NCBI RefSeq assembly: GCF_988243305.1
Contig: NZ_OZ547136.1
DNA length: 64,000 bases
Reading direction: 5' to 3' (one strand)
Under the pieces are notes generated by a model, which saw nothing but the letters and a program-made list of their open reading frames with translations, ran no database searches and had not been told where the DNA came from. Below are positions 4,878-63,938 of this stretch, in pieces; positions within the stretch are counted from its first letter, which is position 1; every line of letters starts with the position of its first letter. A program made the translations under genes and the position numbers.

Positions 4878-6353
4878 TTACTCAAACTCATTCCAGGAAC
4901 GACCATCACGGGTAATCATTGCCACCGAGGCAACGGGTCCCCAGGTTCCGGCCTGATACGGTTTCGGCGCATCATTGTCCATCGCCCACGCCTCAGTAAT
5001 GGAGTCTACCCATTTCCAGGCTTCTTCCACTTCATCACGACGAACAAACAGTGCCTGAATACCACGCATGGTTTCCAGCAGCAGACGTTCATAGGCATCC
5101 GCCAGATGCGTCTGATTAAAGGTTTCTGAATAGCTCAGGTCCAGCTTGGTGATTTGCAGGTTATGTTTGTGGTCAAGGCCAGGAACTTTATTCAGTACCT
5201 GGATATCCACGCCTTCATCAGGTTGCAGACGGATAGTCAGTTTATTTTGCGGTAGATCCTGCCACGACTCTTTAAACAGATTCAGTTCAGGTGTTTTGAA
5301 ATAGACCACGACTTCAGAGCATTTGGTCGGCAGACGTTTACCAGTACGCAGGTAGAATGGCACACCGGCCCAGCGCCAGTTATCAATGTCGACGCGGATC
5401 GCCACGAAGGTTTCTGTATTGCTGCTCTTGTTCGCGCCCTCTTCTTCCAGATATCCCGGCACTTTTTTGCCCTGGGCGAAGCCCGCAGTATATTGCCCGC
5501 GTACGGTTTTTTCGCGTACGTTGGAGCGGTCAATACGGCGCAGAGACTTCAGTACTTTCACTTTTTCATCGCGGATGCTGTCTGCACTCAGGTCAGACGG
5601 CGGAGACATCGCAATCATGCAAAGAATTTGCAGCAGGTGGTTCTGGATCATGTCGCGCATCTGACCGGCTTTATCAAAATAGCCCCAGCGCCCTTCGATC
5701 CCCACTTCTTCTGCCACGGTAATCTCAACATGATCGATGGTGCGATTGTCCCAGTTATTCACAAACAGGGAGTTAGCAAAACGCAGCGCCAACAGGTTCA
5801 GCACCGTTTCTTTACCAAGATAGTGGTCGATACGGTAAACCTGGCACTCCTCGAAGTATTCGCCAACCTGATCATTGATTTCCTGCGAGGTCGCCAGCGA
5901 CGTCCCCAGCGGTTTCTCCATGACTACGCGTGCCGGTTTAGCATTCAGTTTTGCCTCACCAAGCCCTTTGCAAATTGCGCCAAAAGTGCTGGGCGGCATA
6001 GCAAAGTAGTTAATGGTGATACGATTTTTTTGATCCAGCATCGCGCCGAGACGGCTGAATGCAGCAGTGTCATTGACATCGAGATTACAAAAATCCAGAC
6101 GTGCACTCAGGGTGTCCCATAAACCTTCATCAATGGTTTCTTTCATGAAAGTTTCGAGCGCCTCGCGGACAACTTTGGTATAAGCCGCTTTATCCCAGTC
6201 AGCACGCCCTACGCCGATAATCCGGGTGTCCGGGTTGAGCTGACCGGCTTTTTCCAGTTGATACAGGGAAGGCAGCAATTTACGACGCGCAAGGTCGCCT
6301 TTCGCGCCGAAAATGACCAGGTCACAGGCCTGGGCTGTTTGCGTTACCGCCAT
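4878..6353 (-). CDS. zwf: Glucose-6-phosphate 1-dehydrogenase
   Basis: 491-aa ORF with G6PD motifs (RIDHYLGKE). Confidence 0.95.
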
Positions 6354-28647: not shown

Positions 28648-31600
28648 TCAACGAATACTGATGCCGGAAGCGGCTTTTTTGGTCACAATCACCGTACAGT
28701 CGGTGATATTGCCTGCCCCCTGATTGCCTTTCTGGAAAATCTTAAACTCCAGAGTGACGCTACCACCACCACTAGGCATATCAATAACTGCACTGTAACT
28801 ACCGGGAATGGCCCCTTTAGTTTCTCTGGATGCGATTAATACGCCGTTTTTGCGAACTTCAAAACCATAACCCGTGTATCGCGTGCCTCCTGGGTTATTT
28901 CCGCTCCCCGGATCGTCATACGCTATACCGTTAAAAATAATGGGCGGAATAATAATCTGGCGGTCAAAGTTATGATCATCGCTGATGGTGACTGTAACCG
29001 TACCGTTTGGTGTTTCCGTGTTACCCCACGTACCGACTTTTTTCGGGAAGGCTTTTGATACAGCTTTAACGAAATCCCCTCTGACCTGGGTCGCCTCCAG
29101 CATGCCCTTAATCGTACAGTTCTGGTTAATCTTGACATTGTTGAGCGTTCCTGAGTTCGCATTCACACTGCCACTGATATCCGCATTTTTAGCGGTCAGC
29201 TTTCCGTCTGATGTCAGGGAAAATACCGGAGGACTGCCACCGCTGGTAATGGTGGGGGCCGTCAGGCGCTTCAGGAACACGTCGTTCATGAATATCTGGT
29301 TGCCCTGCGCCACAAACATCGGCGTTTCATTCCCGTTTGCCGGGTCAATAAACGCGATACGGTTAGCGGCAACCAGAAACTGGCTCAGCTTGCCTTCCTC
29401 CGTGTCCTCCATGCTGAGGCCAATACCCGCGACATAATGTTTGCCGTCTTTGGTCTGCTCAATTTTGACGCCCCACATGGCATTCCATTTATCGTTAGCG
29501 TCCTTCCACTCTTTCGAAAACTCCTCCAGTCTGCTGGCGTTATCTTCCGTCAGCTCAAAGTTTTCCAGCAGTTCCTTGCCGAGATGCGTTTTATTGATCA
29601 ACCCTTTATAAAAATTCAGATAACCTTCCGCATCATCGCTCGCCCGACCGACGGCCTCCACAAATGCCGATTTACCAACGGTGTTCACGCTGCGGATATA
29701 AAAGTAATAATCATAACCTGGCTTAATATTGCTACTGGCGGCTATCCAGTACAGCGCCGTACCAAGATAACGCGCGCTGGTTTCAACCTGCCTGATATCG
29801 ATAATCCGCTTTTCCGAGAACCAGAACTCAAACTGCACCGTCGGGTCATATACAGCCAGTTTCGGGACCGCTGTTATCTGAAAATACCCTGGTATCAGTT
29901 CAATAGTGACAGGCGCTGCCGGTGCCGCAATCCGGAACGATACCGATGCCGGATCGCCCTGCTGCCCCCACGCATTTACCGCCCGGACCGTCAGCGTGTA
30001 ACGCCCCAGCGCCAGTTGCCTGAAGCGGTATGTGGTTTCCGCCGTCCGGGCCGTGCTGACCAGCCGCTCACTGCCGTCATCCGCTGTTACGGTCAGACGG
30101 AGCAGGAAGCTCACGCCCTTCACCACCTTCGGCGTGTCCCAGCGCGCCAGCACCTGGTATTCCCCGCTGTCTGCGGTGACTTCTGCGGTCAGGTGCTGCA
30201 CCGCTGGCGGCGTGACACCATTTACCGTGCCGCTCTGGTCGCCGTCAAAGTGCGCCCCGTTATCCACGATGGCCTCTTTTTCCGGTACATGCTGCACGGC
30301 GGTGATGGCATACGTGCCGTCGTCGTTCTCACGGATACTCACGCAGCGGAACAGGCGCTGGCGCAGCGTCGGCAGCTTCAGCCCCCATACGCTGTATTCA
30401 GCAACGCCGTCAGGAACACGGCTCACTTTCACCTTCACGCCGTCGGTGACGGACTGAACCTCCACGCTGACCGGACTCCCCTGCCCGTCAACCAGGCTTA
30501 TCAGCGTGGTGCCGGAAGATGGCAGCGTGATTTCACGGTCGAGCGTCAGCGTCCGGGTCTGGCTGTTTACCGCCAGCACGCGCCCGCCGGTGCGGATACC
30601 GGCATAGTCATCATCGCAGATTTCAATGACATCGCCCGGTACATGGCGAAGCCCTTCGGCACCCACGCTGAAGTCCACGGTCTGCGTTTCCAGCAGTTCT
30701 GTTTTAATCAGCCACAGCCCGGCGCGGTGTGCCTGCCCCCGGCTGGTACAGCCAAAAGCATCCATCTTCGTGACGTTACGACCGTAACGGGCAATGGCCT
30801 GCGTGTCCTCCACAAGCTCTGTCGCCGTCTCCCAGCCGTTATTCGGGTCAATCCAGTTCACCTCAACGGCATTATGGCGGTCCTTCAGGGCGCTGAAGCT
30901 GTAGCGGAACGGCGCGCCATCATCCGGCATCACCACATTACTGCGGTTATAGGTCCACACCTTATCCGACGGTCGGTCCTGCACGAACGTCAGCGTCTGC
31001 CCGTTCCATACCGGCATACAGCGCATCGCCGAGCAGAAATCACTGAGCACATCCCACGCCTTACGCTGTGTGGTCAGCCAGGCATTACAGGTGATGCGCG
31101 GCTCCGTGCCGCCAAAACCATTCGGTACCAACTGGTCGCAGTACTGGCCGATAACGTACAGCGCCCATTTGTCCACATCTGCCGCACCAAGACGTTTCCC
31201 CATGCCGTAGCGCGGGTGGGTCAGCATATCCCACAGACACCAGGCCATGTTGTTGCTGTATGCTGGCTTTAACGTTCCGTCCCAGATACCGCTGTATTGC
31301 CGCGTCTGCGGGTTATAGTTCGACGGCACCTGCAGAATACGCCCGCGAAGATGATAATTACGGCTCACCTGCTGGCTGCCGAACTGCTCCGAGTCCACCT
31401 GCACGCCGACCAGTGCCGTGTTCGGGTAGCACTGTTTCACATCGATGATTTCGGTGTATGACGACCAGAGCGTTTTGTTCTGCAGCTGGTCTGTGGTGCT
31501 GTCCGGCGTCATCCTGCGCATCCGGATATTAAACGGGCGCGGCGGCAGGCTACCCACCACCACCGAGGCCAGATACTGCGAGGTGGTTTTGCCCTTAATG

Positions 31601-32061
31601 GTGATGTCTTTTTCCGTCACCCAGCCACCGTTACGTTGTATCTGAACCAGCAGACGGACTTCCGACGGATTCCTGTCACCCTTTGAGGTGTTTTCCACCA
31701 GTGCCTGTACACCGAAGGTAAAGCGCAGACGGTCGATGTTTGCAGACGTAATGGTGCGGGTGATCGGCGTGTCATATTTCACTTCCGTACCCAGCACCGT
31801 CTCGGAGCCGGAGGATTCAAACCCCTCCGGCGGTGTCTGCTCCTGCTCACCGGCACGGAACACCACCGTGACACCGGAGATGTTGGTATTCCCCTCAGTG
31901 TCCAGCACCGGCGTACTGTTCAGCAGCACGCTTTTTAATCCATCCACCGGACCTTCAACCGGCCCTTCGCTGATGGCATCGATCACACTCAGCAACTGCG
32001 TGGACTTCAGGTTGTCCTTCGCTTCGCGCGGGGTATGCCCCTTACTGCTTCCTTTACCCAT
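28648..32061 (-). CDS. J: Tail tip / host specificity protein J
   Basis: 1137-aa ORF beginning [34 protein letters not shown]. Confidence 0.95.
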
Positions 32062-51849: not shown

Positions 51850-53703
51850 TTATGATGATGCCGGTGCATTTATCTCCAGCACCAGACTTTCTATCTCAAC
51901 GCCATACGCTGCATTTTTGGTAATATCCGTCAGCGTCAGCGCATTCAGCCCCAGTGTCAGACTGTCTTTTATGACCTGGAATGCCGGGCCAGCCACTCCA
52001 TTCAGTTTCGGAGTAACCGTGGCACTGCCGGCGGTGAACACCAGTTCCAGCGTCTGCCAGTCATTACTGTAATTCCCGAACTCGCCCAACTTTGTGTTTC
52101 CTGCTTTCTTGTGATGCATCAGATTCAGTTTGCCGTCTGTGGTCTGGGTGAAGAACGACATCAGGAACGGGTTACCAGTCCCGGCCATCGCCACGACGTC
52201 AGGTAACGCTACATCGGTATACAGATAAATTCCCAGGCCGAACTGGTTGTTGGTCAGTGCGCCTGACAGTCGAAACTTACAGCTCAGTCTGCCACCCCGT
52301 GTCAGCAGGGAGACTGCGTCATCCACCGGATGCATCAGGGACCAGGTTTTATTGCTCTGCTTGGCGATCTTAAATACACCACCCGACAACTGAATTCCGC
52401 CGTCCTTAATGGTCCAGCCCTGCGCAGCAGCCTCTCCGGCTGTCGGCAACAGGGAGATTGTGCGTACGGATGCATCTTCAGACGGCCCCGATGGCGTGTT
52501 GCCGCCGGGCGAGGGTTTGATTTCCGGTGCCTTACCACTGATGAAAGCTGAGGTGCGCCCGGCTGCGTTCAGAATAGCGGTTGCCATACGATCCGGAATA
52601 ATGCTCCTGCGCGCCCATGAACTGAAATGTGTCGGGCGGTTTGATGATACCTGGTTTCCATTCGTTCTCGATGCCGCACCGTAATATCCTGATGCCGGAA
52701 TATCCGGATCTTCTGCCGGTGCGTTAGTGGCGGTATTGACGCCGTTACCGTCTGTCATGAAGGGCACAAAATAAACGCCCTCACTCTCCCTGTTTTTATA
52801 CCCGCCGTACACGGTGTCGTACTGGGTAGCGTATGTATTTTTCCAGTAATACGTCGTGTCACCACAAATCCACGGCACATTTACAGCACTACCACCATGA
52901 CACTGCGCGTTAAACACAGTGAGGTCAGCACGAAACTGCTTCAGCATGGCTGTAAACAGCGCAGGTTGCTGTGCGTAGGTGGCGGCGTTCATGTCAAACT
53001 CTCCCTGCATCCAGCACACCGCCAGCAACACATTTTTCGGGTTCTTCTGTAATGCAGCTTTAGTGCGCGCAATCAGGTCCTGATATAACGGTTTACCCAC
53101 ACCCCAGCGTGCCGAATCCTGGCTGGCCCCCGCGTCCGCACTGAATGTCCCCTCCGCGCCCTTGGTGAATGCCGAACCACCACGACAGCATGGTACCAGC
53201 AGGATCCCCGCGTTATTCGGGATATACGGGAGCAGTTTTTTGGCAATATGTAAGCCCTGGCCGACACAGCCGTACTGCCCTTTGCTCAGGTCTGCCTTCG
53301 GATGATTCAGCGTACTCATATCCTGCACATCATGCAGACAGTGGTCAGCCGGGATGATGTCGTTATACGTACAACTCTCTCCACCCGGAGTTACCGTGCT
53401 GCGGCGCGCCAGCTGTTTAATGCGCGGATCCGGAGCATCGTAAGAATCCGGTAACGGAAGCCCTTCACCGTAGGCCATGCCGTTGGACTGTCCGGCAAGC
53501 ACAACCACGTAGAACCAGTCCGGCTCAGATGAAGGGCCGACCTGTGGATCTCCTTCAATAGCCACCGCCTGCATCAGTGTGTACGGCGTAATGGCAACCG
53601 GTCCGCCATATGGCTGCCAGCCCTCTTTCAGTTTGTGTGTCAGCTTTTCCGCAAGGTCTGACGGCGACGCCGCCCTGACAACATCATAGTGTTTAAATGC
53701 CAT
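51850..53703 (-). CDS. Prophage sialate O-acetylesterase (NanS-p / YjhS-like)
   Basis: 617-aa ORF in the position this gene holds in Stx-type phages, between the tRNA cluster and S. Confidence 0.8.
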   Translation of the reverse strand: MAFKHYDVVRAASPSDLAEKLTHKLKEGWQPYGGPVAITPYTLMQAVAIEGDPQVGPSSEPDWFYVVVLAGQSNGMAYGEGLPLPDSYDAPDPRIKQLARRSTVTPGGESCTYNDIIPADHCLHDVQDMSTLNHPKADLSKGQYGCVGQGLHIAKKLLPYIPNNAGILLVPCCRGGSAFTKGAEGTFSADAGASQDSARWGVGKPLYQDLIARTKAALQKNPKNVLLAVCWMQGEFDMNAATYAQQPALFTAMLKQFRADLTVFNAQCHGGSAVNVPWICGDTTYYWKNTYATQYDTVYGGYKNRESEGVYFVPFMTDGNGVNTATNAPAEDPDIPASGYYGAASRTNGNQVSSNRPTHFSSWARRSIIPDRMATAILNAAGRTSAFISGKAPEIKPSPGGNTPSGPSEDASVRTISLLPTAGEAAAQGWTIKDGGIQLSGGVFKIAKQSNKTWSLMHPVDDAVSLLTRGGRLSCKFRLSGALTNNQFGLGIYLYTDVALPDVVAMAGTGNPFLMSFFTQTTDGKLNLMHHKKAGNTKLGEFGNYSNDWQTLELVFTAGSATVTPKLNGVAGPAFQVIKDSLTLGLNALTLTDITKNAAYGVEIESLVLEINAPASS

Positions 53704-54192: not shown

Positions 54193-54269
54193 TGGCGCGT
54201 TGTACTGGATTCGAACCAGTGACCGATTGCTTAGAAGGCAATTGCTCTGTCCGGCTGAGCTAACAACGC
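54193..54269 (-). tRNA. argO: tRNA-Arg (anticodon UCU), argO-like
   Basis: Hand-folded cloverleaf; anticodon loop CTTCTAA; T-arm GGTTCGAATCC; 3' CCA encoded. Confidence 0.8.
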
Positions 54270-54282
54270 AGGGTACAGATAA

Positions 54283-54359
54283 TGGACCGCCATCGAGGAC
54301 TCGAACCCCGCGCAACCAGCTTCGAAGGCTGGCGCTCTATCCTGATGAGCTAATGGCGG
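54283..54359 (-). tRNA. argN: tRNA-Arg (anticodon UCG), argN-like
   Basis: Hand-folded; anticodon loop CTTCGAA; T-arm GGTTCGAGTCC; 3' CCA encoded. Confidence 0.75.
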
Positions 54360-54366
54360 TATGTGA

Positions 54367-54438
54367 TGGTGGCCCTTGCTGGATTTGAACCAGCGACCTG
54401 GCGATTATGAGTCGCTCTCACCACTGAGCTAAAGGGCC
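54367..54438 (-). tRNA. ileZ: tRNA with CAU anticodon (Ile2/Met type), ileZ-like
   Basis: Hand-folded; anticodon loop CTCATAA; T-arm GGTTCAAATCC; short D-loop; 3' CCA encoded. Confidence 0.7.
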
Positions 54439-55263: not shown

Positions 55264-56346
55264 ATGAAAAAATTAACAGTGGCAATTTCTGCTGTAGCTG
55301 CATCAGTACTGATGGCGATGTCTGCTCAGGCAGCTGAAATTTATAATAAAGACAGTAACAAGCTGGATCTGTACGGGAAAGTTAATGCTAAGCACTATTT
55401 CTCCTCTAATGATGCAGATGATGGTGATACTACTTATGCCCGTCTTGGCTTCAAAGGTGAAACCCAAATCAACGATCAACTGACTGGTTTCGGTCAGTGG
55501 GAATATGAATTCAAAGGCAACCGCGCTGAATCTCAAGGTTCCTCCAAAGATAAAACCCGTCTTGCCTTCGCTGGCCTGAAATTCGGTGACTACGGCTCAA
55601 TCGATTACGGCCGTAACTACGGTGTAGCATACGACATCGGTGCGTGGACTGACGTTCTGCCAGAATTCGGTGGCGATACCTGGACCCAAACAGATGTGTT
55701 CATGACTGGTCGCACCACTGGTGTTGCAACTTATCGTAACAACGACTTCTTTGGTCTGGTTGATGGTCTGAACTTTGCTGCTCAGTATCAGGGTAAAAAT
55801 GACCGCACTGACGTAACTGAAGCTAATGGTGATGGTTTCGGTTTCTCCACTACTTATGAGTATGAAGGATTCGGTGTAGGTGCAACCTATGCTAAATCTG
55901 ACCGCACTAATAATCAGGTTATCTACGGTAACAACAGCCTGAATGCATCTGGTCAAAATGCTGAAGTATGGGCAGCTGGTCTGAAATATGATGCGAACAA
56001 CATCTATCTGGCTACCACCTATTCTGAAACCCAGAACATGACTGTTTTTGGTAATAACCATATTGCCAACAAAGCACAAAACTTCGAAGTAGTTGCACAA
56101 TATCAGTTCGACTTCGGTCTGCGTCCGTCCGTTGCTTACCTGCAATCTAAAGGAAAAGACTTGGGTGCGTGGGGTGATCAGGACCTGGTTGAATATATTG
56201 ATGTAGGTGCAACCTATTACTTCAACAAAAATATGTCCACTTTTGTTGATTACAAAATCAACCTGATTGATAAGAGCGATTTCACGAAAGCATCTGGCGT
56301 TGCTACCGATGATATCGTTGCTGTAGGTATGGTTTACCAGTTCTAA
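55264..56346 (+). CDS. Prophage-encoded OmpC/OmpF-family porin (NmpC/Lc-like)
   Basis: ORF 55204..56346 trimmed to the [23 protein letters not shown] signal peptide; ends in ...VGMVYQF; opposite strand to the late operon. Confidence 0.9.
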
Positions 56347-56534: not shown

Positions 56535-56918
56535 TTAATTAGAGTTATTAACAACGATATCCATCTCTAACCGGATATCTAATGCCATTAACATCCCTTC
56601 AATTATGCCCTCAGCCTTCTGTAACCTTTTCCCGATATAACCATCAGAGCAGCAATGCTTACCTGCCAGTGACATGAATGTCATACCGACTACATAATAA
56701 TCTACTAATAAATCGTGCAAATCGCTGTTGTTCTTTTTCAGACGGGCCATGCACCCGCAAATAATCATCGCGTCATCGTCACAACATTGCGGGCGAGATT
56801 TTACTTTTGAAGTAATTAATCCCTTAAAACCGGCGGCAATGGACGACCAGGTCACATCTTCATGATTATTAGCCGCCCACGCTCCCCAGCGTTCGAGAAC
56901 CATCTGAATATCACGCAT
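56535..56918 (-). CDS. Q: Late gene antiterminator Q (QuuD-like)
   Basis: ORF 56535..56933 trimmed to [22 protein letters not shown]...; Cys-rich zinc-binding region. Confidence 0.85.
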
Positions 56919-56935: not shown

Positions 56936-57955
56936 TCAGGACAGCACACCAATCGCCAGCGCGCGATCGATAAAACGAAATATCAGCTCCAGTTGGGAAC
57001 CATACTTCTCTTCAAATGCCACGGTATCCGCATGTAGTTCGTCATGGTGTTTTCTGCACAAAGGCAACACAAAAAGGTCATGCGCTTTTGTACCCATTCC
57101 ACCCTGACCATGACCAATCAGGTGATGAGGATCGTCGGCTGGCTTACCACAACATGCACACGGCTGCGTCTTAACCCAGCGCGTGTACTTTTCATTAACC
57201 CAGCGACGACGTTTTGGGCGTAACATAAAAGACTCCGGCGACTCCGGATCCACTTTCAGCGCCAGCACCTTTTTCGCTTTATCCTGGATGATGCTGGTGG
57301 CAGGAACCGAAGGCACAAGGTCACTTTCCCGGGTGACAGACGGCACAACAGGCTTCGGTAATCTCAGTGCCTTACGGGCTGCACTTTCCGGTAAGGCATC
57401 CGCCAGGTCATTACGAATCAGCCACCAGCACAGTTCCGGCATTGTCACAACGTGACTGTCATCAAAACCGAGATCCCGACGCACAACAGACAACACCCAG
57501 CGGGCACAGTTATCCGTTGCCATTGATTCCAGCCGTTCCGTGAACTGATCGCGCAGCTGGTTATCGCAGTGCCAGCACAGACGGATTGCACCCGGAGCGT
57601 GTCGCATTGTGGTCATGTTCTCGCTGTGCCAGTCGGAATGAGGCCACTGGCAGCCTTTTTCACGAAGTAACCAGCTTTCAAGACATTCCACGCCACCAGC
57701 ACGACGGATCACTGCCTCATTGCGGAACACGGCCCGAACGGCAGGATCATCCGCCAGCGGTTGTGATGCCGCCGGAACGGCACCACTGGCGAAAGATGAA
57801 TAACGTTCCGGCTCAGGCTCCAGCAGGACACGCCCCTGCATAAACAGGGGCATCAGCTCTGAACCGGGCCTGAACAATACAATCCCCATACGCGGGGCAA
57901 TTTCAGGGGTCAGCAGTGCTCTCACGGTCACCTCAGCAAACGATATTGAATGCAT
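56936..57955 (-). CDS. DUF968-like protein with C-terminal HNH-like Cys/His motif
   Basis: 339-aa ORF immediately upstream of Q; CACCGK...HHLIGHG...CRKHHDELH. Confidence 0.6.
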
Positions 57956-57976
57956 ACAGAGAAAAAAACTCAGTCA

Positions 57977-58234
57977 TCACGCAGTAAACTCCTTCACCAG
58001 TATTTCAAACTGGCTTACCTGTCCTTCCAGTTCCTCCACGCAATCCACCAGCTCATCCACCGCCTTTTGTGTACGGTGTTTTGCCTGCAGCAGATCACGA
58101 AGCGCCGGAGTAAGCTGCTTGCGGAGCGTATCTTTTGCCACGCTCGTTTTTTCCATCTGTTCAGCACAACGAAGCATCTCCTGCGCCTGCCGACGAAGTT
58201 GTTCCGGTGAAACAGTGATTGTTCTGTTGTTCAA
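57977..58234 (-). CDS. Hypothetical protein (85 aa)
   Basis: ORF only. Confidence 0.35.
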   Translation of the reverse strand: MNNRTITVSPEQLRRQAQEMLRCAEQMEKTSVAKDTLRKQLTPALRDLLQAKHRTQKAVDELVDCVEELEGQVSQFEILVKEFTA

Positions 58235-59631
58235 AATAAACGCTCCGTTTTACTGCCCGACATGCGGTTATTGCTGTATCTGCGCGGATTGCCCGGCGTC
58301 ATGGGTGTGGAAAGAACCCGGGCACTCTCCTGATCCACAGGCAGAAAATGCCCGTTATGAAAACGCCGGTAAATGGTACCCAGCGTGCCATTACGCTGTT
58401 TCGTGATGTTGATTTCTGCTATGCCTCTGGCCTGAGTTTCCGGGTTGTATACCTCATCCCTGTAAAGCATCAGAATGATGTCGGCATCCGCCTCGATTTC
58501 CCCGGAGTTTTTCAGGTCCGAGTTCATTGGGCGTTTATTGGGTCTGGATTCCACGCCGCGGGAGAGCTGGCTCAGAGCAATCAGCGGAAAACCGCCGGAT
58601 TTTGCCAGGCTTTTAAGTCCCTTTGAGATTTCCCCCACCGCAAGGTCGTGACGCCCCGTGCTGCGGGTTTTAATCAGGCCGAGGTAATCGACCACCACCA
58701 GCGCCGTTTCCGGGTGTTTCATCCGGTGGTGCTTCGTGGTTGCACATATCTCATCAATGGTCAGGTTTGCCTGGTCCACCATCCAGATATTACGCCCCGT
58801 CATTCGTCCCACGCCCTGCGTGAAACGCGCCCAGTCTTCATCTTCAAAACGGGCAACAGACTTAAGACGGGATACCGGCATTCCACCGGCAGCAGACACC
58901 ATACGTTCACCAATCTGGATGTTCGCCATCTCCATGGTGAACAGAAGCACGCCATGCCCCTGCTCAGTCACCTTGTCGATGATGTCCAGCGCAAGTTCGG
59001 TTTTCCCCATCGAAGGACGGGCGGCAATGAATACCAGGTCTCCGGGCTCCATACCGCCCGTTTTTGCGTCCAGTTCATCAATACCGGTCATCAGCGCCCT
59101 GGATTTCTCCAGTCCCTGATTGCGGCATTCAACACGGTCGACCACTTCCGGAAGGACATCATCAATGTGAACCGGCTGAATGACGCCCTTTCCGGTCGAC
59201 AGTGAGGCCATCATGTTCTGCACATCCTTCAGGGCATCCTCGGCTGCTTCACAGGTATACGCATCACGTAAATTCTGTAATGCTTCAGTCAGTGTTTTTT
59301 CTGCATCGCGCAGTGCGGCATTGCGCCGCAACGCTGCGACATAGTGCTCCAGTGAAGACTTCACCCAGGTTTTGCGTCCGGTGTCGGTAATCACCGGGGC
59401 AAGTTCCGGCATCTCATTGCACAGCAGTACGGGGTCAATGACGCCGGATATGCGAGCCTGTCTGCAAATCCCCGCGTAAATATCCCGGTACTGACGCACA
59501 AAAAATACATCCGCCGGAAGTGTGGCCAGAATATCCATCACTTCCGGATCGGCCCCACGCAGAAAAAACGCACCGATGACAGCGCCTTCCAGGTCATCGT
59601 TACGCCATGCCGGGGTGTTCTGGCTGGTCAT
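58231..59631 (-). CDS. DnaB-family replicative DNA helicase
   Basis: 466-aa ORF with RecA-like motifs (AARPSMGKTE; ILMLYRDEVYNPE). Confidence 0.9.
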   Translation of the reverse strand: MTSQNTPAWRNDDLEGAVIGAFFLRGADPEVMDILATLPADVFFVRQYRDIYAGICRQARISGVIDPVLLCNEMPELAPVITDTGRKTWVKSSLEHYVAALRRNAALRDAEKTLTEALQNLRDAYTCEAAEDALKDVQNMMASLSTGKGVIQPVHIDDVLPEVVDRVECRNQGLEKSRALMTGIDELDAKTGGMEPGDLVFIAARPSMGKTELALDIIDKVTEQGHGVLLFTMEMANIQIGERMVSAAGGMPVSRLKSVARFEDEDWARFTQGVGRMTGRNIWMVDQANLTIDEICATTKHHRMKHPETALVVVDYLGLIKTRSTGRHDLAVGEISKGLKSLAKSGGFPLIALSQLSRGVESRPNKRPMNSDLKNSGEIEADADIILMLYRDEVYNPETQARGIAEINITKQRNGTLGTIYRRFHNGHFLPVDQESARVLSTPMTPGNPRRYSNNRMSGSKTERLF

Positions 59632-60536
59632 GCGGCAACACCTCCGATACGAGAACGGTAGCTGGGCCAGTTAAACGACAACCAGTTGCGCCCGCCATCG
59701 GTGATCCTGTCGGCAATCCGGGGACTGATGAACGCCCACAATTCTTCCGGTGAAAGATTGCTGATCAAGATAGTTGGCAAAATACCCTCATACCGGGCAT
59801 TGATAATTTCCTGCAAAATGGCCATTTCAGCCGCACTGCCAAACTGAACGCCGACTTCGTCGACAATCAGCAAATCCAGTGACGCATAATGCTCAATGAC
59901 GTCATCCGCTGTTTTTTCACTGTCATTCCGCCAGCAGTTTTTCACAGCCCGGGTAAGGCGCATCACGTCGGTGATCTCCACACTGGCCAGATAGTTACGG
60001 ATGATGTGTTTTGCCATTGATACCGCCAGATGATTTTTCCCGGTACCGCAACTGCCGGTCATAACAAGACTGGTACCGTTCTCCAGCATATCTGGCCAGT
60101 TCTCCGCATAGCGGCGACAGGCCGCAAGATTTCTGGCTGCGTCAGGATTAACCTCCAGATAATTATCAAACTCGCAGTCCCGAAAACGCAGAGCAATTCC
60201 GGCGTTATCAGTCAGTTCTTCCGCCTTGAGGGACGACAGTTCCATGGTCAAATCACTGGCCTCAGCGATCAAGCAGTCAGGGCAGCATGAAATTTTTTCT
60301 CTGTCCTCGCCATTACGATCGATCCACACCAGTATATGCGTACGATATTTACCGTGTTTTTCGCAATATCCGCGACCTTCACGCATCAGGCAGGAACGAT
60401 AAGGCCATGGCTTTTCGCCCTTCTGAGCAAATGCAATCTCTGCCCGTAACTCATCCATTTCTGCCCGTAACTCATCCATTCGCGCCTGTAGTCTTGTTTG
60501 TTTCTCACGTTGGTCAATCGTCATCATCGCTGTCAC
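59628..60536 (-). CDS. DnaC/IstB-like AAA+ helicase loader
   Basis: 302-aa ORF with Walker A (GSCGTGKNHLAVSMA) and Walker B (LLIVDEVG). Confidence 0.85.
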   Translation of the reverse strand: MTAMMTIDQREKQTRLQARMDELRAEMDELRAEIAFAQKGEKPWPYRSCLMREGRGYCEKHGKYRTHILVWIDRNGEDREKISCCPDCLIAEASDLTMELSSLKAEELTDNAGIALRFRDCEFDNYLEVNPDAARNLAACRRYAENWPDMLENGTSLVMTGSCGTGKNHLAVSMAKHIIRNYLASVEITDVMRLTRAVKNCWRNDSEKTADDVIEHYASLDLLIVDEVGVQFGSAAEMAILQEIINARYEGILPTILISNLSPEELWAFISPRIADRITDGGRNWLSFNWPSYRSRIGGVAA

Positions 60537-60537
60537 C

Positions 60538-61524
60538 TCAGAATGTCAATTTGTTACTGGATTTACCGAATTTGTCAGACATGGCTCCCAGGCCAGCCAG
60601 GACATCGACCTGTCGCTGTCGCCCACCTCCGTGAGCGGCTGGCTGTTGCCAGTAATCTTCGAAGTGACGATCGGGTCCAAAGAACGTCGCAGCCTGCTTC
60701 ACGAACTGTGTGCCGGTATTTCCTGTAGCACGTACCCAGGCGGCATACCGCTTCACGCCATCAAGCATGGTCTCCGGTTTTATTCCCTCCCTGATACGGG
60801 CTTTCCAGGCTTTGAAGGCCGCTGACTTGGAATTGCCACCAGCACGTTTGGGATATTCCTGCCAGGCCTGTTCAAATTCCGGTGAATATTCCTGTCGGGC
60901 AGAACGCGCAGACGCGTCAGCGGATGCATCAATAGTGTTTTTAGTCTCCGTTGTAATCTCTGTAGTAATCTCTGTATTTGTATCAACATTCGGCGTATCC
61001 CCTGTTCCGTTATGACGTCGGGGGGTGTTCCGTTTTAACGTAATAGCTGTATCGCTGATTGCATTATTGCTGTTACTTTCTGGCGAAACAGAAGAAGGTG
61101 TGGTGATGGCCGCAATTGCCTGTGGGTTGATCCCGACAAACAAAATATTGCTGCATTTCACCCCATCGAGCATTTCCACCGTGCGTAAATCCAGAGTAAT
61201 AAACCCTGCATCGCGCAGACGCTTCAGCGCATCTGCGGTTTCCCTTTTCCCGAAACCAAACTGCTCAGCAAACGCCTGGTAGCTTCTTTGCAGTTTGTCG
61301 CCCTGAAAACGCTTGCGATATCCCAGCAACGCTCCGGTGTGCTCATCCCTGACCTCTGTCGGGCGGTACCAGTAAACGATCTCTGAAAGCAGAGCGATAG
61401 CCGTCGCATCCGGACGCCCACTGGGTAGTCGAATATATTTCCACCAGTTCGCAGGTGTAACATTGCCGGAAATATTAATTTGACCAATAGCCATAACTTC
61501 CGGTGTGGGGGCGTAACGGCTCAT
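60538..61524 (-). CDS. Putative replication initiation / replisome organiser protein
   Basis: 328-aa ORF directly upstream of the helicase loader; contains an internal tandem DNA repeat (iteron-like). Confidence 0.55.
   Translation of the reverse strand: MSRYAPTPEVMAIGQINISGNVTPANWWKYIRLPSGRPDATAIALLSEIVYWYRPTEVRDEHTGALLGYRKRFQGDKLQRSYQAFAEQFGFGKRETADALKRLRDAGFITLDLRTVEMLDGVKCSNILFVGINPQAIAAITTPSSVSPESNSNNAISDTAITLKRNTPRRHNGTGDTPNVDTNTEITTEITTETKNTIDASADASARSARQEYSPEFEQAWQEYPKRAGGNSKSAAFKAWKARIREGIKPETMLDGVKRYAAWVRATGNTGTQFVKQAATFFGPDRHFEDYWQQPAAHGGGRQRQVDVLAGLGAMSDKFGKSSNKLTF
60953..60976. repeat. Tandem 12-bp repeat (gtaatctctgta x2 plus degenerate flanking copies), candidate origin iterons
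   Basis: Direct tandem repeat inside the initiator gene, next to an A/T-rich stretch; encodes TEITTEITTE. Confidence 0.5.
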
Positions 61525-61820
61525 ACAACCTCCTTCCGCGGCATGAGAATTGTGTAGCCACGCGCAGGTTGTAGTCGGGCTTTTGCATCAATAGTAAGCG
61601 TTGCAATTTTTCGGATATGAAGATAACCAGCTCTTTCCAGTGCCAGGGTTTCCCTGAATATCGCTTGCTTAGAACAACAGCAGAAATCAGCAAGCACCTG
61701 ATGATCAATAACTCTCTCGCCTTCACCGTCTGAAGAACCCGACATCAAAACACGCAACATAATTAGGCGCTGAATCGGGTTATCGAAAGCACATCCGCAC
61801 ACAAACTGAAAACAGTTCAC
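61521..61820 (-). CDS. Hypothetical protein (99 aa), possible helix-turn-helix
   Basis: ORF only. Confidence 0.3.
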   Translation of the reverse strand: MNCFQFVCGCAFDNPIQRLIMLRVLMSGSSDGEGERVIDHQVLADFCCCSKQAIFRETLALERAGYLHIRKIATLTIDAKARLQPARGYTILMPRKEVV

Positions 61821-62041
61821 GCCACACCTCCCAGACGCTTAAACATTTTTCCAGACAGAAATACCGCCAGAGGGTAACTGATGGTGTAGCTACGCCCCTG
61901 TAGTTCGCACACGACTTTCTGGCTTTCAGCGTTGACTAGGCAAACCCGCAGAACGTGACCGTTGCTGGTGGCGAACCACTGCCCCACACGGGGGCAACGG
62001 TTGTATCGGTGATACAGGGAATTAACGATGTGGCGGATCAT
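61817..62041 (-). CDS. Hypothetical protein (74 aa)
   Basis: ORF only. Confidence 0.3.
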   Translation of the reverse strand: MIRHIVNSLYHRYNRCPRVGQWFATSNGHVLRVCLVNAESQKVVCELQGRSYTISYPLAVFLSGKMFKRLGGVA

Positions 62042-62232
62042 GGACGCACCTCCACCGTAGTTACGTATTTAACCGGGCTACCTTTCATTGAGATGGTTTC
62101 ACACATCTCTGCCGCTTTCAGTTCCGCTGTTTTTCTGGATTTATAGCGACGGTGCCAGACAGATACATCCGTGCGAACTGATACATCGTTTCTGTATTCC
62201 GTAGTGGAGATGATGATTTCGTAACTAATCAT
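62038..62232 (-). CDS. Hypothetical protein (64 aa)
   Basis: ORF only. Confidence 0.3.
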   Translation of the reverse strand: MISYEIIISTTEYRNDVSVRTDVSVWHRRYKSRKTAELKAAEMCETISMKGSPVKYVTTVEVRP

Positions 62233-62780
62233 GGGCGAACCTCCTTGTCAGAACCATTCAGCCTGGAATCAACAAGTGCAGCGCCAAAAACAGCATCACC
62301 AACACGGTCGTACAGTTTGCTAGCCAGCGGAGATTCAACGGCCTTAAGCATTGGATAAAGCTGGCTTGTCCAGATTTGATGGATTTCACGCAAATGCAGG
62401 TATACGCCTCTGGCGTTTCGTGCGACAGCTGACATATCAGACGCATCGGCACCTGATAAACTCTTCTCCATCAGGTTAAAGGCGTTGATGTATGCCTCTT
62501 TGAACCGGGCTGCACGTTTGCCAGTAAAGCCCATAGCAAGGAACGCGAAGCCATCACGGGTGATTTGATAGCAAGGTAGTTTGCGGCCTGTGCAATCGGT
62601 GTAATCACTCACCGAAAAATTGCGGGCAGTGAATGATGCGGAGCATTCAAGCGTGCGGATCTTTTTCAGTACATCGTCATGACGCTTGGAGAAGAAGTTG
62701 GCAACAGCCAGGGATGAAGTAACAGCCTGACCATCAACGATGGCAATTTCAGGTTGAGTGAGGGTTGGGATCGTAGCCAT
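62229..62780 (-). CDS. Rha-family phage regulatory protein
   Basis: Rha-type motif SKRHDDVLKKIRTL; ORF 62229..63080 trimmed to the ATG at 62780, which has a GGAGG Shine-Dalgarno 8 nt upstream. Start uncertain. Confidence 0.65.
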   Translation of the reverse strand: MATIPTLTQPEIAIVDGQAVTSSLAVANFFSKRHDDVLKKIRTLECSASFTARNFSVSDYTDCTGRKLPCYQITRDGFAFLAMGFTGKRAARFKEAYINAFNLMEKSLSGADASDMSAVARNARGVYLHLREIHQIWTSQLYPMLKAVESPLASKLYDRVGDAVFGAALVDSRLNGSDKEVRP

Positions 62781-63188
62781 GATGGCAGCCTCCGTTGACT
62801 GTGGAAAACTTCCACCACCGGAGCTGCGAAACTCACTGGTGGCAGACTGAACAGGGTTCGCAGTACCGGCGTCAACGGAGACCGGCGAGCCTTTCGGCTC
62901 CCCTGCCCAGCCCACCATAATTCTGGCGTGCGTGAGCGCGGACGATAAAAAAGACGCTGGCGCGTCATATATCGCCGTTGACAATTCCGGGCTGCGACCC
63001 CCGGCACCCGCTTTATAAGGTGCAGAGACAGTGTAACGTCCCGAAATTGCAGAATCAATATTTGGTCTTGAAATGATCATATAGCTGCTGATATCTTTAG
63101 AACTGTTCTTGGATGTTTCGGAGCCGTTTTATGCGAAACAGCTCCCCGTTATTGATGTTGAGTGAGCCGGGTTACTCCCGGCTTTTTT

Positions 63189-63938
63189 TCACCGCTGCCA
63201 ACCAATAACCTGAAATAACCCCATTTTCGGGTGATACCAGCGAGTCCCTCGCGGTTCTGCTTCCTCCATAACCCGATAAAAAGCAGCCATAAACGGTTCC
63301 ACAGCAACAATTGCGCGACGTGACAACAATCCGTCCGGCGTCATGAACTCATGGGTGTCTGTAGGAATCTGATAGGCGTTCACCAGATTGCGGCATTTAT
63401 CATCTGACAAACCGGTTTTTGCTTTCAGTTGGCGATATCCGGCATAGCCCTCACGAATAGTGCCCTTTTTAATTTGCTCGACTGTTTCAGCAACGTGGCT
63501 GACTTTTTCTTCCACCTGAGTGATCCGTTTCTGTTGGCGAACGGCTTCAAGAGCCATCGCGGCAACCATTTCGATTTCGCTCATTGGCTTACGGATCTGT
63601 TCTTCCAGTTCACGCCAGCGATCTACCAGGCGAGCAGTGAATTCAGGGCAGAGCTGTGCGACGACAATGATGCTGTCGCGCTTACCTTGTTCTCCTTCAA
63701 ACAGGTAATGCTCATATTGAACTTTAAAACCTAAGTTATTGATTTTCTCGGAAACAGCCATTGGCGGTTTCCGGATGATGTTTTTAGCAACCAGGCGTTC
63801 GATACTACGTTTAACATCTGAGTGCTGACTACCCACCAGCTCTGCGATCTCAACGCTGGTCATGGATGCTTTGTCGTTAAAAATTGCGGTGTTCACTGCC
63901 ATCTCCTTACGGATAAATTCTTTTAAGATTCCGCACAT
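63189..63938 (-). CDS. Putative antirepressor / Rha-ORF6N-like regulatory protein
   Basis: 249-aa ORF with Rha/ORF6N-like segment MTSVEIAELVGSQHSDVKRSIERL; start uncertain (internal MAVNT with AAGGAG directly upstream). Confidence 0.5.
   Translation of the reverse strand: MCGILKEFIRKEMAVNTAIFNDKASMTSVEIAELVGSQHSDVKRSIERLVAKNIIRKPPMAVSEKINNLGFKVQYEHYLFEGEQGKRDSIIVVAQLCPEFTARLVDRWRELEEQIRKPMSEIEMVAAMALEAVRQQKRITQVEEKVSHVAETVEQIKKGTIREGYAGYRQLKAKTGLSDDKCRNLVNAYQIPTDTHEFMTPDGLLSRRAIVAVEPFMAAFYRVMEEAEPRGTRWYHPKMGLFQVIGWQR

Follow-up and report, generated by a model that had tools for sequence, protein, structure and literature searches.

A gene at the lambda nin position of a prophage, directly upstream of the late antiterminator gene Q, raises the question of what its product does for the phage. 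The gene studied here lies in a 64,000-nucleotide stretch of DNA (contig NZ_OZ547136.1), hereafter the window. The original prediction, made from the letters alone, described its product as a single 339-residue DUF968-like protein with a C-terminal Cys/His cluster suggestive of an HNH or zinc-ribbon nuclease fold.

Reading frame, start site, and neighbourhood of the gene

The open reading frame runs uninterrupted over 56936..57955 on the minus strand, and from its ATG it encodes the 339 residues first proposed. The true product, however, is most likely the 329-residue form, because 329 residues is the length of every close homologue in a collection of 5.8 billion proteins, RefSeq gives a 329-residue "DUF968 domain-containing protein" on the chromosome of an E. 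coli O111:H21 strain with 99.8% identity in this region, and a GAGG (57934-57931) is read from the sequence at a 5-nt spacing from the GTG start (57925-57923), whereas inspection of the sequence upstream of the ATG at 57955 revealed no Shine-Dalgarno motif. Residue numbers below refer to the 329-residue form unless stated otherwise; adding 10 gives the numbering of the 339-residue form. The features of the gene and its neighbours are listed in Table 1.

Table 1. Coordinates of the DUF968 gene, its parts, and the adjacent genes in the window
Feature	Position	Strand	Basis
quuD (Q antiterminator), starting 17 nt past the DUF968 stop	56535..56918	-	Pfam Phage_antitermQ (E 4e-53), RefSeq
DUF968/YdfU-family coding sequence, GTG start	56936..57925	-	ORF, homologue length, RefSeq, Pfam, PHROG
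Predicted HNH/His-Me finger core, aa 256-298: C256xxC259, H267-H268, D283, C290xxH293, H294, H298	57032..57160	-	
Basic motif D-P-E-x-P…R-P-K-R-R-R-W, aa 226-243, directly before the HNH core	57197..57250	-	Conservation
Helical middle region/linker, aa 166-225; the Pfam DUF968 model starts here	57251..57430	-	Pfam, predicted helices
N-terminal domain, aa 1-165, outside every Pfam family	57431..57925	-	Own AlphaFold model
Cys/His ββα module, aa 92-124: C92, H100, β-hairpin 104-117, C117-W-H-C120-D121-N; putative structural Zn site, degenerate HNH-like unit	57554..57652	-	
Shine-Dalgarno-like GAGGTGA, 5 nt ahead of the GTG	57928..57934	-	Sequence reading
85-aa ORF (coiled coil) separating dnaB from the DUF968 gene	57977..58234	-	ORF list, PHROG, RefSeq
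DnaB helicase, upstream, same operon	58231..59631	-	Pfam, RefSeq
DnaC/IstB-like loader, upstream, same operon	59628..60536	-	Pfam, RefSeq
Upstream replication genes (DnaC/IstB-like loader and DnaB), together	58231..60536	-	

With quuD beginning so soon after its stop codon, the gene is indeed directly upstream of Q. It also occupies the nin position, although not as the only protein there, since the 85-residue ORF lies between dnaB and the gene as well. This ORF aligns with PHROGs 2565 and 2539 (profiles of 204 and 229 residues) over just their C-terminal ~83 positions. A promoter and terminator scan found no convincing terminator between dnaB, the DUF968 gene, and quuD. On the other side, an intact OmpC/NmpC-like porin gene (55264-56346, plus strand) converges on quuD; the quuD-nmpC module is common to the window and the DLP12 prophage of K-12, in which nmpC is disrupted by IS5. 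Three tRNA genes follow downstream of quuD (54193-54438, minus strand), reading Arg(tct), Arg(tcg), and a CAT-anticodon tRNA that ARAGORN assigns to Met and RefSeq to Ile. Between this cluster and the prophage holin gene lies a gene for a 617-residue SASA-family carbohydrate esterase (51850-53703, minus strand).

The protein belongs to a common prophage family

HMM searches bore out the DUF968-like assignment: Pfam DUF968 (PF06147) scored 271.6 bits against a cutoff of 27.8 (E 3.7e-81), covering only the C-terminal half (residues 170-336 of the 339-residue form), and PHROG 96, "HNH endonuclease", matched end to end (E 3.7e-177). The N-terminal and C-terminal parts each have PHROGs of their own as well, with PHROG 11007 covering residues 11-143 of the 339-residue form. 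HNHc_6 (PF16784) scored 26.8 bits against a cutoff of 26.6, and only model positions 123-184 of 204, the HNH core, were matched. The Pfam scan of the protein detected no DUF1364, RecA_dep_nuc (PF16786), NinG (PF05766), HTH, or Q-like domain, and NCBIfam held no matching model. Searching the PDB with the single sequence returned only YbcO (E 1.3), while the profile search there gave no match.

The gene itself is ordinary, an already catalogued member of a common E. coli prophage family. A phmmer search of 1.84 billion cluster representatives returned 3095 relatives at E <= 1e-3, the window allele is about 99% identical to a protein cluster with thousands of members, and tblastn located the protein in 187 phage records of Escherichia, Shigella, Salmonella, Klebsiella, Citrobacter, Yersinia, Hafnia, Morganella, and Vibrio. 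The HNH nature of the family was predicted in print in 2017, with a place in His-Me finger group 7 (Jablonska et al. 2017), and fusions of DUF968 to Erf, Rad52, and RusA have been published (PMC4118853, PMC5714182). Single-member database proteins in which DUF968 is joined to a Q (PF03589) or KilA-N (PF04383) domain most likely reflect gene calls that read through or shift frame over very short intergenic gaps, and are no real fusions. Our literature search found no experimental study, nuclease assay, or genetics of any DUF968/YdfU protein, in keeping with the description of this kind of protein as poorly characterised.

The C-terminal module carries a conserved HNH core

To assess the Cys/His cluster, we used an alignment of 40 full-length homologues with 25-57% identity to the query. 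In the 339-residue numbering, the cluster reads C266-A-C-C269 … H277-H278 … D293 … C300-R-K-H303-H304 … H308, so that the CxxC...HH...CxxHH pattern first noticed is present, and its conservation (32-40 of 40 per position) is far beyond chance. C256 and D283 are invariant (40/40 each), and the other zinc-site positions are mostly kept (C259 in 32/40, C290 in 34/40, and Cys or His at position 293 in 32/40), as are the histidines H267 (35/40), H268 (36/40), H294 (35/40), and H298 (35/40). In the basic motif before the core, K238 is invariant, P237 is kept in 38/40 homologues and D226 in 36/40. The middle region is modelled as helical, with lower pLDDT values (73-84) around residues 190-230.

The structural features of an HNH/His-Me finger were found, namely the ββα-metal fold, a general-base His on β1, a structural Asn/Asp, a metal-binding His in the helix, and a CxxC…CxxC/H zinc brace. 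Judged from its sequence, the cluster is a canonical zinc-finger HNH, and the C-terminal module is predicted to belong, as a catalytically competent HNH/His-Me finger, to one lineage with YbcO, P1 Ref, and HNHc_6. The HNH-type nuclease reading of the original prediction is supported by PHROG 96, by the fold, and by the conserved catalytic and zinc residues. In such a module, the CxxC…CxxH zinc site would brace the ββα unit, H267/H268 would provide the general base, and D283, H294, and H298 would serve as the catalytic metal ligands.

Matches to the fold include Cap5 and McrA, and HNH nucleases often serve in defence and counter-defence. Together with the extreme spread of the family in E. coli prophages, this brings up a conflict nuclease, which would attack rival phages, satellites, or plasmids or else act in counter-defence. 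We consider such a role distinctly unlikely: the PADLOC defence models (PADLOC-DB) gave 0 families at E <= 1, no partner sensor or immunity gene is present, and the gene sits in a lytic delayed-early operon, not in the position of a lysogen-expressed moron, where it keeps a conserved syntenic place beside recombination genes.

The N-terminal domain contains a putative second Cys/His module

Modelled alone with AlphaFold, the N-terminal domain reached a pLDDT of 94.5 and a pTM of 0.77. Foldseek detected nothing significant for it in the PDB, and 35 N-terminal domains searched against Pfam gave no consistent family match. Its Cys/His ββα module is conserved too: among the 40 homologues, C92 is kept in 39, C117 in 40, W118 in 39, and D121 in 36, while position 100 is Cys or His in 39 and position 120 His or Cys in 40. 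Positions 100 and 120 pair as C/H, H/C, or H/H, and swaps of this sort are as expected for zinc ligands. The N-terminal half looks, if faintly, like a second, degenerate zinc-binding ββα module that lacks the general-base His. Alignment of the two halves by hhalign (E 0.0085, probability 4.7%) is only suggestive of an internal duplication.

Gram-positive "DUF968" proteins were described as Orf(NinB)-HNH fusions (Curtis et al. 2014). This description fails for the window protein, whose N-terminal domain, tried as an Orf/NinB or YbcN domain, gave profile probabilities of at most 0.2% against λ NinB and DLP12 YbcN and no fold match to 1PC6.

Comparison with characterised relatives

YdfU of the Qin prophage of E. 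coli K-12 belongs to the same Pfam family and stands at the same place upstream of Q; we see no essential difference between YdfU/DUF968 and the window gene, which is another allele. The YdfU-type homologue of phage 689R5 has 47% full-length identity to the window protein. YbcO (DUF1364, PF07102, PDB 3G27), found in DLP12 and phage 82, is related at the profile level (E 3.9e-5), but it is a single domain of 96 residues, whereas the window protein has 329 residues and two modules owing to an N-terminal extension of about 250 residues with the second Cys/His module. The two were never found together in the surveyed loci. P1 Ref, a RecA-dependent HNH nuclease (PDB 3PLW, PF16786) and one of the two nearest proteins with experimental work behind them, differs in that its Pfam family, RecA_dep_nuc, has no match in the window protein and its N terminus is a disordered basic tail instead of a folded domain. 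λ NinG (Rap), a branch-specific endonuclease of the His-Me finger superfamily (NinG group 24), is like DUF968 encoded in the nin region just before Q; it is a non-essential accessory gene and is mutually exclusive with DUF968 in the surveyed loci. Direct kinship with NinG was rejected, as hhalign gave a probability of 7% over 13 columns, no Pfam match was found, and the domain architecture is different.

By motif, the closest studied relative is Gp16 of the S. aureus phage ΦNM1, an HNHc_6 protein and RecA-interacting nickase (PMC12817073, NAR 2026) with the motif C145xxC148…H157…C181xxH184H185…H189 (PMC12817073). The window protein has the same pattern with the spacing kept within two residues (CxxC-9-H-22/24-CxxHH-3-H), and it shares with Gp16 and the HNHc_6 "Orf-HNH" proteins a two-domain layout with the HNH module at the C terminus. 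The N-terminal domains are different, that of Gp16 being NinB/Orf-like (RAGNYA) and that of the window protein unlike NinB or YbcN by either profile or fold.

P1 PdcB is a full-length relative of the window protein (26% identity over 97%; Pfam DUF968 3.6e-50). Like the window protein, it has the N-domain motif and both Cys pairs, and it adjoins the gene of the late activator Lpa on the upstream side; in the P1 sequence that we retrieved, pdcB lies at 5001-6044, directly upstream of lpa. Unlike in the window protein, H267/H268, H294, and H298 are replaced in the PdcB clade. This histidine-less branch comprises PdcB and three related representatives, all of which keep the entire N-domain motif and both Cys pairs, and it is probably a non-catalytic derivative, judging from the residues replaced. 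The PdcB-type branch keeps the scaffold without the catalytic histidines, which suggests that a scaffold function can outlast the loss of catalysis. P1 pdcB is non-essential, with an efficiency of plating of 0.68 under CRISPRi and a viable pdcB::kan mutant. A Vibrio-type branch shows another pattern, with C259 and C290 lost and the histidines kept.

The gene is linked to late activators and replaces other nin genes

We surveyed 79 sequences with a near-identical allele (78 IMG/VR phage contigs and the window), a sample that is deep but narrow. In 74 of the 79, Q starts 13-21 nt past the DUF968 stop, and these Q genes are of two unrelated families, 45 QuuD-type (PF06530) and 29 Qin-type (PF03589). 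Upstream gene content was counted in the 67 loci with at least 3 kb upstream: RusA-KilA-N precedes the gene in 57, and the window-type DnaB-85-residue-ORF arrangement in 10, the 85-residue ORF always accompanying the DnaB-type replication module (10/67). No NinG, NinB, YbcO, YbcN, or other λ nin gene was found in any of the 67. In DLP12, the block ybcN-ninE-ybcO-rusA-ylcG precedes the quuD-nmpC module, and in the window the DUF968 gene replaces that block. The DUF968 gene behaves as a positional alternative to YbcO and NinG.

More distant carriers show related orders: RusA-DUF968-Q in Hafnia phage yong2 and Klebsiella phage ST147-VIM1phi7.2 (where Q is a DUF1133/antitermQ protein), RusA-x-DUF968-Q in a Morganella phage, methylase-DUF968-Q in phiNP, and pdcB-lpa in P1. 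The YdfU-RusA-Q order of 689R5 matches ybcO-rusA-quuD of DLP12. We also considered DUF968 as a substitute for the RusA resolvase and rejected it. RusA is encoded upstream in 57/67 loci and occurs also in mEp460, yong2, and the Morganella, 689R5, and Klebsiella phages, and with this co-occurrence the gene is no RusA substitute. RusA is absent from the window, so that a pairing of nickase and resolvase is not obligatory.

Late activators of several unrelated families are thus tightly linked to the DUF968 gene. Such linkage could mean that the double zinc scaffold binds DNA, or RNA polymerase and Q, and modulates late transcription or the switch from replication to packaging, with cleavage secondary. 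Two unrelated Q families within 13-21 nt, a third Q-like family after the gene in the Klebsiella phage, and Lpa after pdcB fit this idea, as does the PdcB clade, in which both zinc motifs and the N-terminal domain outlived the catalytic histidines; some records even label homologues as Q-like or as regulators. We rate it as very improbable nonetheless, since those labels have no experimental basis, the catalytic His/Asp set is kept in about 35 of 40 diverse members, Pfam detects no DNA-binding HTH or Q-like domain, and any last nin gene is expected to adjoin Q.

The position of the gene also bears on two roles known for many phage HNH proteins, namely packaging, in which an HK97 gp74-type protein aids cos cutting by terminase, and selfish homing. 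One allele with differing neighbours could suggest mobility. We give these roles very little likelihood: the terminase genes lie about 10 kb or more from the DUF968 gene, past the lysis cassette; the Klebsiella, Morganella, and 689R5 phages have a separate HNH or homing endonuclease elsewhere, which adjoins the terminase genes in the Klebsiella phage; and the protein is large, has two domains, and keeps its syntenic place without interrupting a gene, the differing neighbours being ordinary lambdoid mosaicism.

Another role would be that of a Gp16-like host-takeover nickase, which nicks the host chromosome early in the lytic cycle, possibly together with RecA, stalls host replication, and so favours phage production. 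Gp16 suppresses the growth of the host, compacts its nucleoid, and promotes phage propagation (PMC12817073), P1 Ref is reported to damage host DNA too (PMC4713147), and the operon of the DUF968 gene is expressed only after induction. This role appears unlikely, because the NinB-like N-terminal domain of Gp16 has no counterpart in the window protein, the DUF968 gene is delayed-early and not immediate-early, and two linkage patterns, the exclusion of NinG and YbcO and the frequent company of RusA, speak for a part in phage DNA metabolism.

Ten examined carriers of the gene lack the recombination genes searched for

Among 314 enterobacterial lambdoid phages, 68 have no recognisable Rec module and are rich in correctly oriented Chi sites, and one of them, LLS, grows better with RecBCD (PMC12315714, Genome Res 2025). 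LLS_47, annotated as "HNH nuclease domain protein" and located just before Q, is a DUF968 member with 55% identity to the window protein (E 2e-126). We searched ten carriers (the prophage of the window, LLS, mEp460, SfIV, HannyBb, YeP3, yong2, Stx2a_EH2201, phiNP, and the Klebsiella phage) by tblastn with λ Exo/Bet/Gam, P22 Erf/Abc1/Abc2/Arf, and Rac RecT/RecE, and the λ positive control was detected. Homologues of Exo/Bet/Gam, Erf/Abc/Arf, and RecET were absent from 10/10 carriers within this limited reference set, compared with a published Rec-less base rate of 22%. Six of the ten share LLS-type early-left genes (an Rv2179c-type DnaQ-like exonuclease, an HD phosphohydrolase, DUF2303/YfdQ, and YfdP), so the ten-genome sample is non-independent. 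This gene set, which spans 28759-31730 in LLS, could be a so far unrecognised DNA-transaction module of "Rec-less" lambdoids. RdgC homologues occur in 2/10 carriers, YeP3 and the Klebsiella phage.

The window contains 14 Chi sites (GCTGGTGG), against 2.4 ± 1.5 expected, and 14 was reached in 0 of 100 shuffles. They span 2677-63840, and 11 of the 14 lie on the minus strand, the coding strand of the prophage. Eight are clustered in the early-right operon (57293-63840), including three inside the DUF968 gene (57293, plus; 57422, minus; 57693, minus). This pattern matches the class of Chi-rich lambdoids with no Rec module described in 2025.

Proposed function

We tentatively favour, at somewhat short of an even chance, a delayed-early nickase or branch-specific nuclease that aids host RecA/RecBCD recombination; its activity, substrate, link to RecA/RecBCD, and N-domain role are what we infer. 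On this view, the delayed-early (pR) operon, in which the gene follows those for replication and immediately precedes Q, would supply a zinc-dependent DNA nuclease of two modules. Its N-terminal module, the degenerate ββα zinc unit, would probably bind DNA or a partner, and the nuclease would act on phage DNA, nicking or cutting recombination and replication intermediates that are branched or bound by RecA. Cutting would promote host RecA/RecBCD-dependent recombination and concatemer formation, the same role as that of NinG/Rap or YbcO (with RusA) in other lambdoid nin regions and of Ref in P1, and its importance would be greatest where the phage itself has no recombination module. We favour this nuclease because the catalytic and zinc residues are conserved, the motif spacing is that of Gp16, the gene travels with RusA and excludes NinG, NinB, and YbcO, DUF968 is known in fusions with Erf, Rad52, and RusA, and the gene occurs in Rec-less phages that are rich in Chi.

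Several observations count against this nuclease. The PdcB clade lacks the catalytic histidines, so the conserved function may be other than cleavage; pdcB is non-essential; the protein has no sequence match to the Pfam family of Ref or to NinG; and the Rec-less link comes from 10 non-independent genomes and a limited reference set.

A more specific version is doubtful, although we think it worth stating: DUF968/YdfU would be a tandem "double His-Me finger", in which a degenerate Zn-ββα sensor precedes an active HNH that makes or processes breaks and D-loops for host RecBCD-Chi-RecA recombination-dependent replication, with the P1 PdcB branch being non-catalytic.

Significance

The new points of this analysis are the probable double-HNH architecture, a PdcB branch that is putatively inactive, and a link with lambdoids that are Rec-less and Chi-rich, along with an N-terminal half that is not Orf/NinB-like, the linkage to late activators across unrelated families, and the co-occurrence with RusA without NinG, NinB, or YbcO. 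Thousands of E. coli and Shigella prophages carry an annotated copy of this protein, and the value of the window gene is mainly that of a lead. DUF968 is among the most abundant uncharacterised families of predicted nucleases in E. coli, and a basic biochemical assignment would improve prophage annotation. In about one-fifth of enterobacterial lambdoids no recombination module can be recognised, and these phages rely on host RecBCD and Chi (Genome Res 2025); LLS, the prototype of this class, has a DUF968 homologue in the same place. The gene is a candidate recombination helper in lambda-like phages without recombination genes of their own, and it could reveal how such phages recruit host recombination.
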